The translations under genes were made by a program, and so were the position numbers. From IMG/VR virus record IMGVR_UViG_2728369181_000008: 40,347 nucleotides of DNA. One strand, given 5' to 3'. The stretch's first letter is position 1. The number at the start of each line of letters is the position of its first letter. The notes beneath the pieces are model-generated. The model was not told the DNA's origin. It did no database searches and was given only the letters and a program-made list of their open reading frames with translations. Positions 3,406 through 10,611 of this stretch are shown here, one piece after another. This DNA is from a virus (taxonomy: Duplodnaviria > Heunggongvirae > Uroviricota > Caudoviricetes).

Positions 3406-6052
3406 TTGCATACTCCTTAGCCCAGCGGGGCAGTGATAACGTTTTAATAGCTGGCCATTCATCGGTATTCAGGCAGTCAGCCAGGGTCCTCAGATTGCGG
3501 TGATATTCCTGCTGGCCTGCCAGTTTTGCTTCTTCGCCCATCATGAAAATCTCAACCGGGTAACGTCCGCATTCAACAGTTGTGCTGGCAACCAGAAAAA
3601 CGAAAGTTGGCAGCACACCAAACTGTGCTTCATAACCGTCACTGTAGAATGCATCCTGAACGTGATAGCGGTAGTCGTAATAAGCCGTTTTGAATCGTTG
3701 AATATCCGCTGTGGTTTTCACGTCCATGATCCAGTGAAATTCAGGAATAATTTTGTCCGGACGGCACCGACACAAAATTCCTGTTTCCGGATCTTCCCAG
3801 TAAATTGATGATTCAGCGTGTCCGGCGCTTTCCACAAGCCATTGACCCAGCGGCAAAGCCATAACGCTCTGATACATGAGTTCAATTTTCCGGCCTTCTT
3901 CGGCAGTGATAACCGTTTTTCCTGTGCTTGCGCATTCCATCAGAAACGCTTTCTCTTCTTCTTTTCCGGCGTTTGTACGGCGGTTAAATTCAGGTGCTAC
4001 GATAAAGCGGTTACTGAATTCTTCCGGTTCAAGTACACGGCAGTGGAAAGCGGTTCCTAAATCGAGCGTTTTTGTCTTTGTGGTGTCCACAGGGGCATTT
4101 TTACGCCACAAATACAGCGCCGGAGTATCAGCAATGTCGTCGAGCTGAGACTTACTGACACCGGGACCCGCGTGGTAATTCTCATTCGAAATTCCGTAAT
4201 AAATACCAGGCTCTATGTCTCCTGCGATTACGGGATCTGCGACTTCGCCAGTTTCATCACTGCAATCGCGATGCAGATCGCTGCCAGCATTCTCATTGTG
4301 CGGATGTTCAGGGCCTTCCATTTCCTCCGGCTCTTTTTCCTGAGATTCATCCAGATTTTCTTCATTAAAGGTTTCCTGATACGTTGCGTCGCCCATCACC
4401 GCGCCACAGTCAGGACAGTTGCCGCCGCCAGCCTGACCGCAGGCATTGCAGACTTTTTCCAGTTCCTGTTGCGCTTCTGGTTCATTTTGTCGCGCATTTT
4501 GGCCGTTTTGTTCCGATTTTCGGTCGTTCTGTTCTGTTTCTGGCTGATGCTGGTACACAGAATCGCGGGTCTGGATCCCTTTAACCCATTTCGGATCATT
4601 CGGGTCGCTAATCCCTTCAACAAATTCTCCGCGAGAGGCAGCCAGTAATTTGTCTGCATCGACAGGATTTTTGGGCGGAATGTTTTTCCGGGCTTCATGG
4701 AGTTCTGCCCGCAGTTTCTGATATTTCGCATCAACAGAATTTACCTGTGACTGAGCATCCAGCGGCTGCGTGTCCTGATGATGTTCAGTTGCATCCGGTT
4801 CCACTGTTTCAGCCGTTGCCTGTTCATCTGCCATTGCGCAAGATGGTTGCGGTTTTTCTTCATCATCCTGTTTTTCTTCTTCTGTTACACGCTGCGGCAT
4901 CGGGGCAGAGGAGCGACCGCAGGCAATATCCACGATTTCCGGATCAGGGTTGGCATGATCGGTTTCAGTCAGTACTTTGTTCAGATATTCAGTGACGTGT
5001 GCGGGGATGACCTCGATCCCAATTGGTGCTTCTTTTACGGACGCAACCACGATGGCGCGGGAATAATCCAGCCCGCCAGGCATGGTGATGAATTTGTCGC
5101 GGAAAACAGAAAAGGGCGGTTTATTTTCAGCGATAATTTCCTCGACACGTTTAGCGTGTGCCGGATGAAGGTTATAAATGTCCACGTCCATTGAACGGGC
5201 CAGTACGCCAGTGGCTACGTCGCGCGCCAGTGACGTCAGATCGTGAACGAAACCTTCGCCGCGATCGGTGAGGTTCCCGCCGCCAGCATTAGCGCCGGAA
5301 GCCGTGCGCGTGATGCGTGAAACACGATTTCCTTTCATCCACTCTTTTGTCAGCAGACCGCGATCGGTGTAGTCTGCGTCCAGGTATGCTTCGAAAAAAG
5401 CAGTCATCAGCCCCAGGCTTGAATTGCCTGGATTAGGGAAAACTCTGTCAGTATCACGCACCAGTTTGTGGAGATCGCGAATTTCCAGCGGGTCGAGCAG
5501 GCTGGTTTTGTGGGAAACAGCCAGGGCAGTAACAGCCGGTAGTTCCTCAGCCCGTGCAATGTGTAATGCCTGGAGTTCGTCGCGTGAAACGTGCGTTACC
5601 GGTTTTTCGCTGCCGTGTTGAGCAAGCCAGCGAATGGGCAGCTCCTGGCCAGAAATCGGGAGTAGCATATTCTCCTCAATCTCCGTCATGTCTTCGCCAT
5701 TAACATTGGTATTGTCAGTGCTGGCTGGTTTGTCCTGCGCAGAGGGTGAGGGCGCGATAAATACCATTGTGATGCCATCTTCCCCGCCTTTTTCGTAACG
5801 GTTGCAGAATTCCGTATCAAATACGCCTTCTGGCGGGAGGTCATCAACAACGGGCAAATTGACGCGAACAGGTTTTTTAAAGTCATCTTCATCGTAGCCA
5901 GCATCGTCAATCGCAACAGCACCACGGGAGATGGCAATGGATAATTTTTTCGCTTCAGCCCAGTAAAAACCGCCTTTAATACCGAGACGTTTTCTTACTT
6001 TGTCATTTTTTGCTTCGTAATACAGTGGATAAACTTGTTTATCGGTGCTCAT
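3398..6052 (-). CDS. recE: Exodeoxyribonuclease VIII RecE
   Basis: 884-aa ORF; C-terminal nuclease domain (…[25 protein letters not shown]…MDVKTTADI) as in Rac RecE; N-terminus and exact start uncertain; overlaps recT start. Confidence 0.93.
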
Positions 6053-6446: not shown

Positions 6447-6617
6447 TTAAAGTTCGTGTGCCATCTGGTCTTTTTCGGCGCAAGCTTTACTGCAATATTT
6501 TCTCGGTTCGTCTTTTGATAAAGTCCCGTGCATGAAGTGAAGCATTCTTTCAATTGCCTTGCTTTCTTCAATTTCTTTATTACAAAGGTGGTAAGCACAT
6601 TTTATTTTCTTAGTCAT
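6447..6617 (-). CDS. YdaE-like zinc-binding protein (56 aa), not in the ORF track
   Basis: Own translation of the minus strand: [56 protein letters not shown]; four Cys; start may be the upstream GTG/ATG at 6620-6623. Confidence 0.6.
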   Translation of the reverse strand: MTKKIKCAYHLCNKEIEESKAIERMLHFMHGTLSKDEPRKYCSKACAEKDQMAHEL

Positions 6618-6838
6618 CACCATGACTCCGCCTTTACAGGTAAACCATCACGACCGAGGAAGATTTTAATCATGCGGTCAGTAATGCATGTTTTTGTGGT
6701 CAGGCTACGGATATAAAGTTTCCTCTTTTTAATATTATTTGCCGAGGCAATATATGTCCGGCCTTCATGAAGAACATAATCGCCAGGAGTCACACACTGA
6801 CGTGGTATTTCATCAGTTCCGAAGTGATGTGCAATCAT
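6617..6838 (-). CDS. kilR: KilR-like cell-division (FtsZ) inhibitor
   Basis: 73 aa from [21 protein letters not shown] with RBS ggaga; matches recalled Rac KilR. Confidence 0.85.
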
Positions 6839-7244
6839 AATTATCTCCATTTTTACAAATGAACTTTGTTGATGCGGCGCCTGGTGCCTCCAGGTGACTG
6901 CAACCAGTTAACAATTACAGTCGGCTTTCCCACCCAAACCAATAAGGACTAACATGACTTTTAACTGTGCCGCGTGCGCTTAGCCGCATTCACCGCATCA
7001 CAAAATTCACTTTAAAAAGGGCGGACATCAGTCGAACTTCAAGAAAAAACTGATGCCGCCAAGACTACACACAGCAGTGTTGTTATTCACAACCGGAGGC
7101 GCACTCCAACCATTTAAATTTAACAGACAAGACCGACTCTTTATGGATACCGGAAATGCGCCTTCGTGTTGTGCGCCTGTCTTTTTACCACTTCAGGCTC
7201 GGTGGTATACTGGAGTTCTCACACAACCAGTAAGGAGAATAATT

Positions 7245-7424
7245 GTGCTATCCAATATGAATGAAATTGATTCGTTAGTTTTTGAATATTTGCGACTTAA
7301 GCACCCCAAAGGCTGGGATTGCAGTGAAGCCGATTTTATTTCAGAAGTTCAACGCCTGAGAGCGGAGTTTACCGAGCTTCTTAACCCGCCTCAGCGTGAT
7401 ATCCCCCCTGGATTTATTGGTTAA
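7245..7424 (+). CDS. Small hypothetical protein (59 aa), GTG start; C-terminus ...DIPPGFIG
   Basis: Strong RBS aaggaga 6 nt before GTG; promoter-like TTTACC-N17-TATACT upstream; convergent with the 7414..7776 gene. Confidence 0.45.
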   Translation: MLSNMNEIDSLVFEYLRLKHPKGWDCSEADFISEVQRLRAEFTELLNPPQRDIPPGFIG

Positions 7425-7776
7425 TCGCTAGAGTAATCATTGATTTGATACTGGCAACGGCTGCTGCGCTTGCCGTTGCCACAGCATTTTCAACAAACTC
7501 TTTATCTTTGCCTTTTAATGTTAGTTCTTCTATTATCCGGCAAAATGTAGGTTGATATTTTTCCAGAACAAAGTAAGCAAATTCTCTGTTAACGCTATGC
7601 CCATAAACAATAATATTTTTATCTGTTTGCTTTGTATTTGTATCATATGCAGAATGTAGACTTTTATTAGCCATAATAATTCGTTCTTCAGTGCCTGCAT
7701 TTGGTTCCAGCTGCTGGAGGCGCTTTGCATCCTCCAGAAGCAGAGCGATAACGTGTTTTAATTCTGTTTCGTTCAT
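7414..7776 (-). CDS. Hypothetical protein (120 aa), accessory gene at the sieB/rex position
   Basis: ORF with RBS aggtga before ATG at 7776 (GTG at 7785 also possible); AT-rich 3' half; no recognisable motif. Confidence 0.5.
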   Translation of the reverse strand: MNETELKHVIALLLEDAKRLQQLEPNAGTEERIIMANKSLHSAYDTNTKQTDKNIIVYGHSVNREFAYFVLEKYQPTFCRIIEELTLKGKDKEFVENAVATASAAAVASIKSMITLAINQ

Positions 7777-7777
7777 T

Positions 7778-7933
7778 TTATTCACCTGAATGTATTGCCA
7801 ACCATCGACGCGCGCCAGCTTCGGTTTTAAACGTTTTGCTTTTGGTATAAGTCATGGCGGTGAATGTGCCGTCTTGATTGGGAAACACGCCACATACCAG
7901 AGATTCGTTGTTGCCAAGATCGATAGTATTCAT
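7778..7933 (-). CDS. DUF1391-type small protein (YdaF-like)
   Basis: 51 aa from MNTIDLGNNESLVCGVFPNQDGTF with RBS gagg; first gene of the leftward operon. Confidence 0.5.
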   Translation of the reverse strand: MNTIDLGNNESLVCGVFPNQDGTFTAMTYTKSKTFKTEAGARRWLAIHSGE

Positions 7934-8230: not shown

Positions 8231-8650
8231 TTAAGAGGCTTTTTGTTTTTTCTTTCGTGCTAACTCTTCGTAAATTGCATTGTACTTCTGTTTTTTCTCC
8301 TCAAGAGTTTTTAAAAGTTCATCTGTCTCACTGTCAGGGAGCTCGTCCAGAAGGTCAATGATGATTTTTTGTCTTGGATTTAACTCCTGATAGAAACGTA
8401 CCTGTCCACTTTCTTCTGTATCCTCTCCCAAAAGATAGGTTGGTGTTGTTCCAATGAGTGTTGCTAATTCCCTTAATTTCTCTCGGCGAGGAATTGTTTC
8501 GCCATTAAACCATTTGCTAACCGCTTTTGGTGTTAATTTCATTCGACGGGCAATTTCTGCCTGCCTTCCATGTTGTTCATAACCAGCGTTTTCACAGGCT
8601 AGCGCAAGCCTACTGGCGAACTCTTTACGCGCTTTATCTTCATGAACCAT
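8231..8650 (-). CDS. Prophage repressor, HTH-XRE type (RacR-like; no S24 peptidase domain)
   Basis: 139 aa; N-terminal HTH (…LTPKAVSKWFNGETIPRREKLRELATLIG…); charged coiled-coil-like C-terminus; divergent from the cro-like gene. Confidence 0.75.
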   Translation of the reverse strand: MVHEDKARKEFASRLALACENAGYEQHGRQAEIARRMKLTPKAVSKWFNGETIPRREKLRELATLIGTTPTYLLGEDTEESGQVRFYQELNPRQKIIIDLLDELPDSETDELLKTLEEKKQKYNAIYEELARKKKQKAS

Positions 8651-9447: not shown

Positions 9448-9890
9448 TGTAACGCTGCGAGCGTTACAAGGTGAAAACAAATGGCTTCAAACTGGATAAA
9501 GCTCGAGGTTATTACGCCGGATAAGCCGGAAATATTCAGGCTTGCTGAGATTCTGAATATTGATCCAGATGCCGCATTAGGGAAGGTTATTCGCTTCTGG
9601 GCATGGGCGGATCAACAAATGATAGACGGTAATGCAGATTGTAACGCTCGCGGCGTTACAAAAAGTGCAATAGATCGCATTACTTTTATGGCTGGTTTTG
9701 CTGATGCGTTAATTCAGGTTGGATGGCTGGTCGAAAATGACGGTGGGCTTTCTCTACCTAACTTTGAACGTCATAACGGGAAAAGCTCTAAAAAACGGGC
9801 GGTTACAAACGAGCGAGTTACAAAAATACGCGAACTGAAACGAAAAGGTAACGCTGCCAGCGTTACACAAAGGGATCAAAAAGCGTTACC
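9448..9890. repeat. Iteron-like inverted repeats GTAACGC(T)-N3-5-(A)GCGTTAC, candidate replication origin
   Basis: Copies at 9448-9468, 9640-9660, 9801-9824 (degenerate), 9847-9867 and a half-site at 9882-9890, followed by (GAGGAA)3 and an AT-rich stretch. Confidence 0.55.
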
Positions 9891-10611
9891 AGAGGAAGAG
9901 GAAGAGGAAGATATAAATACTGATCTAACCCATCCCAAACCCTTCCCTTCCGGAAGGGAGTTCCGGGATTTTGTGGCGGGAGTGCTTGAGGGGAGATTAT
10001 CTGGCGGTACTGCAGCGGAATTTTGTAATTCTGCGGTGGTTGCGTTGCAGGCTGCTGGCCTGGATGTCTGTCGTGAGTATCCGGTGCCAGAGCGTGGTGA
10101 CGGTTGCGGAGGGCGGATTGATATCGTCGTGACTGACAGGAACGGTGTCCGGTGTGGGATCGAGCTTGACCGAAATTCTCCGCGACAGAAATCACTGCTC
10201 AAAATCGGTGCTGTTGAAACCGGGATATGTGTCTTGCGGCGCAGTGATATCGCAAGGCACACCGAGCAGGGAATTCTGGTTATCGGTGGGGCTGTTCGCC
10301 AGAAAAAATTTGACCCGTTGTCAGTTGATCTGCCCGACTGGTTGCCAGAAACACTCTGGCATGAGTGGGTCCAGTTCAGGCAGGCATTGCGAAAACCGAT
10401 TCGAACGGAGCAGGGCGCTAACGGGGCGATACGGGAGCTGGAAAAATTCCGCCAGCAGGGTTTTACACCTGAGCAGGTGATTCGACACAGTATCGCCAAT
10501 GAATACCAGGGCCTGTTCGCGCCGAAAGGTGTTCGGCCTGAGACGTTGCTCCGACAGGTTAACACCGTCTCGTTGCCGGACAGTGCGATCCCGCCAGGCT
10601 TCAGGGGGTAA
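9481..10611 (+). CDS. Replication initiation protein (YdaU/DUF1376-like replisome organiser)
   Basis: 376 aa immediately upstream of the DnaC-like loader; contains the iterons; acidic EEEEEED linker; C-terminus ...AIPPGFRG. Confidence 0.7.
   Translation: MASNWIKLEVITPDKPEIFRLAEILNIDPDAALGKVIRFWAWADQQMIDGNADCNARGVTKSAIDRITFMAGFADALIQVGWLVENDGGLSLPNFERHNGKSSKKRAVTNERVTKIRELKRKGNAASVTQRDQKALPEEEEEEDINTDLTHPKPFPSGREFRDFVAGVLEGRLSGGTAAEFCNSAVVALQAAGLDVCREYPVPERGDGCGGRIDIVVTDRNGVRCGIELDRNSPRQKSLLKIGAVETGICVLRRSDIARHTEQGILVIGGAVRQKKFDPLSVDLPDWLPETLWHEWVQFRQALRKPIRTEQGANGAIRELEKFRQQGFTPEQVIRHSIANEYQGLFAPKGVRPETLLRQVNTVSLPDSAIPPGFRG

Follow-up and report, generated by a model that had tools for sequence, protein, structure and literature searches.

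A convergent gene pair at the sieB position in a Rac-like prophage is one allele of a shared-promoter hotspot

Among the described systems with which the locus considered here can be compared are sieB of Rac, P22 and lambda, and rexAB. SieB is a protein of 162 amino acids (aa) with a hydrophobic segment, expressed in the lysogen from its own promoter; its gene lies between kil and the early-left small genes, runs against the early-left operon and converges on ydaF-type genes, and its escape function, Esc, is an internal product of the same gene. The two rex genes are co-transcribed with the repressor, and RexB is a multi-pass membrane protein. Fixed slots with conserved bounding sequence and interchangeable accessory genes are also found in variable defence hotspots of temperate phages and satellites, such as those of P2 and P4 (Rousset et al. 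2022, PMC9122126), and in lambdoid prophages the repressor-N region is known to harbour morons (Owen et al. 2020, PMC7067206). Here we analyse a stretch of Caudoviricetes DNA of 40,347 nucleotides (nt) (IMG/VR record IMGVR_UViG_2728369181_000008, hereafter the window), a Rac-like prophage with a convergent two-gene cassette (7245–7776) between kilR and the repressor gene. We show that both genes are genuine and form a conserved accessory pair at the sieB position, and that the cassette is one allele of a widespread hotspot, the members of which share one nearly invariant sigma-70 promoter and leader, with the promoter facing the early-left operon. The small protein could be a lysogen-expressed exclusion or interference protein and the large early protein its cognate antagonist; we give this reading a probability of about 0.4.

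The cassette has the layout that the original prediction, made from the letters of the window alone, had assigned to it. The small gene, a plus-strand open reading frame (ORF) of 59 aa (7245–7424), starts with GTG and ends with TAA. The Shine–Dalgarno sequence AAGGAG is located at 7232–7237, 7 nt upstream of the start, and is preceded by a promoter-like site, which is nearly invariant in homologous loci. The large gene lies on the minus strand (7414–7776, with ATG at 7776) and encodes 120 aa, or 123 aa if the alternative GTG start at 7785 is used. The two genes converge, and their 3′ ends overlap by 11 nt (7414–7424). The AT-rich composition ascribed to the large gene is found as well, with the G+C content of 37% (36% in the C-terminal part) versus 49% for the window. 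The same holds for the sieB-type position between kilR (6617–6850, minus strand, phrog_294) and the repressor gene (8231–8650, minus strand, profile match to HTH_3).

Related prophages can be aligned with the window up to ~7174 and again from ~7785. Between the equivalents of these positions the related phage 613R10 carries sieB, in the slot, the orientation and the strand of the small gene, and E. coli O103 RM8385 holds just a short sieB-upstream remnant there. In this presence/absence comparison, which the original prediction had proposed, the cassette replaces sieB at a shared breakpoint. It is rare, being present at the megablast level in 9 of 5426 complete E. coli genomes; E. coli PEC41 and O157:H7 strain 2571 are examples of strains that carry it. 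An own promoter, the orientation against the lytic genes, the atypical composition and the presence or absence among related prophages, all of them marks of a prophage moron, are found here as far as the sequence can tell. The conservation of the pair and the shared sieB breakpoint support the idea of an unrecognised two-gene cassette at a site of lysogen-expressed accessory genes. The original prediction overlooked the much larger hotspot, with its common promoter, of which the cassette is a single allele.

The proteins themselves do not resemble SieB. BLASTP of the small and large proteins against SieB of phage 613R10 gives best E-values of 1.3 and 0.33. The maximal Kyte–Doolittle hydropathy over 19 residues is 0.21 for the small protein, 1.49 for the large one and 2.06 for SieB, and the AlphaFold2 models of both proteins are soluble and helical. 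With no SieB similarity and no membrane segment, a sieB or rex remnant is ruled out, and so the degradation that could have undone the original prediction is not what we see. The small gene has much in common with sieB: the slot between kil and the early-left small genes, the orientation against the early-left operon, the own promoter, the proposed expression in the lysogen, the convergence on ydaF-type genes, the left breakpoint and an upstream sequence that is partly related (..ACCAC..GGTGGT..). However, the cassette proteins are small and soluble and have no sequence similarity to SieB, and an escape function would be encoded here by a separate convergent gene and not, as Esc, by an internal product. 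Hence, the equivalence of the small gene to sieB is positional only. Unlike rexAB, the cassette genes are convergent, have ydaF and an intergenic region between them and the repressor, and encode proteins without membrane segments and without Pfam or PADLOC matches.

Both ORFs are real genes under purifying selection. The ratio of non-synonymous to synonymous substitution rates (dN/dS; Nei–Gojobori, with synonymous sites near saturation) is 0.09–0.35 for the small gene and 0.14–0.22 for the large one, and this, together with the conservation, rules out the small ORF as a chance ORF. It is true that the ORF is short, that gene callers often overlook it (the recorded gene calls of L006, L007 and L016, three of the related loci, are without it) and that the direct protein search yielded only relatives of at least 95% identity; a degenerate-pattern scan for the small protein in GTDB representative genomes gave no match. 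All the same, tblastn finds small-gene homologues beside the partner gene in L005–L007, L013, L014 and L016, the diverged ones 44–66% identical, with synonymous changes far outnumbering non-synonymous ones, and similarity to SieB is absent. The reading of the 59-aa ORF as a chance ORF or a degraded sieB remnant is thus extremely improbable.

The small protein is acidic, with an isoelectric point (pI) of 4.7. Its AlphaFold2 model (mean predicted local distance difference test score, pLDDT, of 82) has helices at residues 2–19 and 28–46 and a disordered tail at residues 47–59. The protein gives no match to the Pfam YdiH model PF15930 even at E = 10. The link to this family comes through intermediates: the partner in L014, 44% identical to the small protein of the window (tblastn E = 4e-8), scores 29.5 bits against the PF15930 cut-off of 27, the convergent partners in L023 and L024 match PF15930 above the cut-off, and the small partners of L015 and L017 are connected via alignment and profile search. 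A four-sequence profile of the small protein aligns with both helices of K-12 YdiH with hhalign E = 3e-4, at a probability of only 39%. By intermediates and profile comparison, the small protein is a divergent helical hairpin of the YdiH family. The two-helix layout is that of YdiH (PF15930; K-12 b1685), and the core of the promoter is shared too; unlike K-12 ydiH, which is chromosomal between rydB and menI and has no such convergent partner annotated, the small gene is one half of a pair, and its protein lies outside the Pfam model and has a different tail (IPPGFIG). We also note the start codons. The subfamilies with the IPPGF tail (the window, L005–L007, L013 and L016) use GTG or TTG at the aligned position, and the other subfamilies use ATG; the former may reflect deliberately low translation.

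The element in front of the small gene (7175–7238, plus strand) comprises the −35 and extended −10 sequences, the leader, the Shine–Dalgarno sequence and three dyads. The promoter scan places TTTACC at 7184–7189 and TATACT at 7206–7211 with a 16-nt spacer, the extended −10 being TGgTATACT at 7203–7211. Taken alone, such a site is no better than chance (5 sites found versus 4.1 expected in shuffles). Nevertheless, across 11 loci the stretch of about 60 nt in front of the small gene hardly varies, with downstream proteins that are only 22–68% identical. A 23-nt signature, GTGGTATRCTGGAGTTCTCACAC, occurs in more than 120 IMG/VR contigs among the matches listed, and this limit applies to all the locus counts below; in GTDB representative genomes the promoter pattern is found in 3 genomes only. 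The dyads are GCCTG/CAGGC (7175–7179 with 7194–7198), ACCAC/GTGGT (7187–7191 with 7202–7206) and ACTGG/CCAGT (7209–7213 with 7227–7231). The last of them, with the pattern [A/G]CTGG-N13-CCAG[T/C], covaries (AU 5, GC 3, CG 1 and GU 1), and none of 500 shuffles reaches the overall covariation score. As it spans the −10 element, it may act as an operator or else form a hairpin, either in the antisense transcript or in a sense RNA longer than assumed. We dropped pairing of the leader with the DicF-like small RNA (sRNA) encoded nearby, since the leader is equally conserved in loci without DicF.

The promoter core GGTGGTATACTG is common to K-12 ydiH, where it lies inside a different, perfect 10-bp inverted repeat. 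The promoter of K-12 ydiH, homologous to the one described here, is active, with a start site known from experimental mapping (PMC4488433). This gene (our locus L026, 1764934–1765122) may be a domesticated cargo gene of the hotspot, derived from the prophage cargo described here.

Behind the conserved element the cargo changes from locus to locus. Among the matches listed, the element heads at least 12 unrelated families of small ORFs of 59–113 aa. The slot is constant in 123 loci, between kil or ydaE and the repressor or ydaT: the left flank, on the opposite strand, encodes KilR in 41 loci and YdaE in 47, the right flank encodes the repressor in 12 loci and YdaT in 35, and the opposite arrangement is found in none. 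The cargo families belong to no Pfam or PADLOC family apart from weak zinc-ribbon matches, and a search of ten other cargo proteins against PADLOC-DB 2.0 gave nothing except a DpdC match at E = 0.008. Most cargo types have a convergent partner of their own on the minus strand, in most of those overlapping the cargo's 3′ end; for three cargo types a convergent ORF was not found. The C-terminal module of the partner is specific to the cargo, and its N-terminus is shuffled. The fixed slot, the conserved bounding sequence and the interchangeable accessory genes make this locus similar to the P2/P4 and repressor-N hotspots. In contrast to those, the anchor here is a nearly invariant promoter and leader, the cargos are of 59–113 aa and belong to uncharacterised families, and most cargo types have a convergent overlapping partner fused to shuffled N-modules.

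A promoter and leader far more conserved than any cargo, with the cargo interchangeable, can also be read at the level of RNA. The promoter would fire against the early-left operon, and convergent transcription with antisense pairing would damp read-through into DicF and kil in lysogens, with the cargo ORFs as secondary passengers. Precedents for such devices are lambda OOP/cII and P22 sas/sieB. Consistent with this, the convergent partner ORFs, where found, usually overlap the cargo's 3′ end, as seen in several pair types that are unrelated to one another, and a terminator is not predicted downstream of the small ORF. Yet both proteins are under purifying selection, the small protein is predicted to fold confidently, and a pure transcriptional brake needs no cargo-specific partner modules, which makes this explanation doubtful.

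The large protein consists of two modules. The N-module (residues 1–47; 7636–7776, minus strand) is a helical hairpin, and the matches to phrog_30817, 12693, 2982 and 32391 cover only these residues. Full-length relatives of the 120-aa protein, with identities of 46–62%, come from Salmonella, Enterobacter and metagenomes, and most of the 192 database relatives share the N-module alone and have different C-termini; at least 6 different C-modules are joined to it. The N-module thus looks like a promiscuous, widely shared fusion partner. We considered and rejected its identity with YdaG or YdfB, as it has no sequence relationship with the YdaG of phage 613R10 or with the proteins of phage Tritos that resemble YdfB and YdfC.

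The C-module (residues 48–120; 7417–7635, minus strand) is modelled by AlphaFold2 as a beta-hairpin followed by two long helices, and its pI of 7.8 makes it more basic than the small protein. It is rare: a profile search yields 27 representatives among 1.84 billion proteins. Its standalone relatives P0140, P0143, P0145, P0147 and P0154 match phrog_23495, which the window protein does not, and the C-module belongs to the family of this PHROG. In Klebsiella and other prophages the C-module occurs alone as a protein of 72–105 aa, with a convergent YdiH-like partner (L017, L023 and L024). As these standalone C-modules are still paired with a YdiH-like gene, what is conserved is the combination of a YdiH-like small gene with the C-module. 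In an unrelated phage, L021 (3001–3237), a remote C-module homologue (P0147, E = 3e-7) is seen between the tail-tube and tail-chaperone genes and with no YdiH-like neighbour; this relationship may be spurious, or the domain may have been put to another use there.

The pairing itself is strict. Among the matches listed, the YdiH-like cargo occurs with the C-module in 42 of 42 loci, many of which are near-identical, so that they represent ~12 distinct variants, and no other cargo occurs with it (0/91). The N-module of the partner is present in some YdiH-like loci and absent in others. Homologous YdiH-like pairs overlap by 9–104 nt and pairs of other cargo types mostly by 4–72 nt, and the convergent, overlapping pair is kept in Escherichia, Salmonella, Enterobacter-like and Klebsiella loci. 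One may ask whether these are independent accessory genes, which merely travel together between two conserved recombination anchors, with the promoter element at one end and, at the other, either the N-module or the gene upstream of the pair. The breakpoints indeed lie at the conserved element and at the start of the large gene, and the homologue in the tail-gene cluster of L021 has no YdiH-like neighbour. But the 42/42 versus 0/91 co-occurrence extends to identities down to about 22–35% and over four genera, the pairing holds with and without the N-module, and the 3′ ends always overlap, so we consider mere co-travelling quite improbable.

The original prediction had also named a toxin–antitoxin-like module as a possible function. 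In such a scheme the C-module of the large early gene would harm the host as Kil does, the acidic small protein, made constitutively in the lysogen, would neutralise its leakage, and autoregulation would use the promoter dyads as operators. The strict co-occurrence of two small genes in tight linkage would suit this, and so would the pI of 4.7 of the small protein next to the more basic C-module, the dyad symmetry overlapping the promoter, the host-killing neighbours in the operon (kilR and the DicF-like sRNA) and the RelE/ParE pair inserted nearby in a related prophage. Type II toxin–antitoxin pairs, however, are normally co-directional operons, and the genes here are convergent. No similarity to a known toxin or antitoxin fold or family was found for either protein, and a toxin would not usually be fused to variable N-modules in an early operon, as the partner is. 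In one of the cassette-bearing E. coli genomes the large gene is interrupted by IS2 and the small gene is intact, which is compatible with this scheme and not specific support for it. As for a type I-like pair, the 11-nt overlap of the ORFs comes with no predicted terminator behind the small one, and neither protein is a small hydrophobic toxin. On balance, a toxin–antitoxin function seems unlikely.

We suggest an exclusion or interference protein with its cognate antagonist as the best reading, on the grounds of a position equivalent to that of sieB, of the strictness with which cargo and C-module are paired, and of the soluble design of a hairpin plus a tail. In the lysogen the early-left promoter would be repressed, and the small gene alone would be transcribed from its own promoter, its transcript extending antisense into the large gene. 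Upon induction or infection, early-left transcription would yield the large protein and collide with the small-gene promoter, so that the two genes would be expressed in opposite states. Exclusion or interference would then be the task of the small protein, which the cargo-specific C-module of the large one would bind or antagonise as its cognate partner. By analogy with the logic of SieB and Esc in the same slot, such an antagonist would let the resident phage escape its own factor.

The most speculative step of this mechanism concerns the target. The small protein terminates with NPPQRDIPPGFIG, a disordered tail ending with DIPPGFIG, and its IPPGFIG (7401–7421, plus strand) resembles the tail of the replication organiser of the window and of E. 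coli DnaT. The organiser gene (9481–10611, plus strand) has a DnaT-like C-terminal domain and tail at 10330–10611; the protein terminates with SLPDSAIPPGFRG, IPPGFRG being encoded at 10588–10608, and its residues 284–376 match the DnaT structures 2ru8 and 9zbt (phmmer). In the last 7 residues 6 are identical between the small protein and the tails of DnaT and the organiser, and in both cases the motif ends a disordered segment. Unlike DnaT, the small protein is a two-helix hairpin with no three-helix domain and no homology beyond the motif. A six-frame scan of the window confines the motif to the small ORF and the organiser. Two small-protein subfamilies, 52–57% identical overall, retain [IV]PxGF[IV][GS] across different linkers, and [IV]PxGFRG closes every replication organiser read in related loci, whatever its N-terminal family. 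The organisers of L001–L019 have quite different N-terminal families, all with the DnaT-like domain and this tail. GFRG-tailed organisers are also found in Klebsiella prophages without an adjacent DnaC-like loader, which suggests that the tail binds a host protein.

The tail is not a recent DNA copy of the 3′ end of the replication gene, a possibility that we rejected: over the 14 terminal codons 24 of 42 nt are identical, and the codons of the two tails differ at synonymous sites. In DnaT the tail is a flexible 20-residue segment (PMC5778457), to which recent preprimosome structures assign no partner (PMC13377028). We propose that the DIPPGFIG tail would imitate the flexible IPPGFRG tail of DnaT-type organisers, and that its target would be whatever that tail binds at helicase loading or replication initiation. 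A small phage inhibitor of helicase loading is known in Staphylococcus phage 77, where ORF104 binds the DnaI loader. The small protein would be similar to ORF104 as a small phage-encoded protein proposed to interfere with helicase loading; unlike it, the role here would be prophage-encoded exclusion and is entirely hypothetical. Replication as the target, which the tail suggests, is a sub-hypothesis that we regard as improbable, and the resemblance to DnaT, a resemblance rather than a family membership to judge by the residues compared, is a lead and not a finding.

Similar endings are seen elsewhere among the cargos. A DnaT-like tail, [IVA]Px(x)F[RIV][GS], also closes unrelated zinc-ribbon cargos (..SKIPVFRSV and ..YAPLFRSFDE). 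The tail ..GSS[NDK] closes two unrelated cargo families (cargos of L027–L149), and several other cargos end with ..DLF(N/Q)G.., reminiscent of clamp-binding motifs.

Several points weigh against the proposed exclusion function and against replication as its target. Other YdiH-like subfamilies are without the tail motif (they end with ..WEKLGSSN or ..NEWRHF) and keep the same partner module; the tail therefore cannot underlie the pairing. The prophages of these motif-less subfamilies still carry GFRG-tailed replication organisers, and no covariation of the cargo tail type with the organiser tail is seen, as organisers carry GFRG whatever the cargo tail. The arginine of GFRG is replaced by I or V in the small protein, and a short motif found after the fact can be a matter of chance. 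The co-occurrence of cargo and partner could come from linkage between the two conserved anchors rather than from function. The third dyad lies over the −10 sequence, which leaves two options, a start site upstream of the assumed one or a dyad that works at the level of DNA or of the antisense RNA. Neither protein matches PADLOC-DB 2.0, and neither has a Pfam or NCBIfam match above curated cut-offs. Fold and sequence searches against solved and viral structures gave nothing that implies a role in defence or replication; with the small protein, a PDB profile search returned nothing. The statement of the original prediction that no motif could be named in the large gene therefore holds as far as curated families go, and searches of PHROG, Pfam, NCBIfam and PADLOC provided no functional name for either protein. 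The two proteins are not entirely isolated, however, as the small protein is linked to YdiH and the large one to PHROG families by its N-module and to the family of phrog_23495 by its C-module. In the same way, the profile and structure searches it had called for gave these links and no informative fold match.

The surroundings of the cassette fit a Rac-like prophage. The DUF1391/YdaF gene (7778–7933, minus strand; PF07151, E = 1e-28) belongs to the early-left operon, is located upstream of the large gene and separates the pair from the repressor gene. In the related prophage L003 a RelE/ParE toxin gene with a small upstream gene (3856–4328) is inserted between the DUF1391 gene and the repressor, and this insertion is a second variable site adjoining the cassette. 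Downstream of the cassette on the early-left strand a DicF-like sRNA with a terminator-like hairpin (7019–7073, minus strand) matches Rfam RF00039 with E = 3.4e-7 and 42.8 bits, which is less than the gathering score of 48; phage Tritos has a DicF annotation in its homologous region. It is followed by an STnc100-like leader (6831–7017, minus strand) in front of kilR. With this sRNA and leader before kilR, the early-left operon resembles the dicBF operon of the Qin prophage. The minus-strand order from right to left ends with kilR, ydaE, a racC-like gene and recE.

The locus also has a practical side for annotation. The NCBI Prokaryotic Genome Annotation Pipeline (PGAP) annotates the small gene in two cassette-bearing E. 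coli genomes and calls the intact large gene a 40-aa ‘incomplete’ pseudogene (L001 4808–4927; L003 3296–3415), and some other gene calls omit the small gene.

Accessory modules at prophage hotspots are already known; what seems to be new here is the promoter element, the YdiH-like/C-module pair and the convergent pair with shuffled N-modules. Our literature searches (motif, ydiH and hotspot) returned no description of the element or of the pair, nor of the convergent arrangement with shuffled N-modules.

Last but not least, if the cassette is an exclusion or interference module, it would be a very small system that current defence catalogues miss. In its boldest form, which we think very doubtful, the proposal would be that Rac-like and lambdoid prophages of Enterobacteriaceae hold, between kil and the repressor, an undescribed family of exchangeable two-part exclusion modules with one portable promoter and leader. 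A tiny lysogen protein with a short docking motif at its C-terminus, derived from replication proteins (here from the tail of DnaT and the replication organiser), would block helicase loading or replication initiation of incoming phages, and the cargo-specific C-module of the convergent early gene would be the antidote of the resident. As one 23-nt promoter signature finds them all, at least 12 uncharacterised families of small proteins could be screened together. The resemblance to the DnaT tail provides a testable handle on what the conserved flexible tail of DnaT-type proteins binds. We see the main value of the finding in the generality of the hotspot and in this testable lead.

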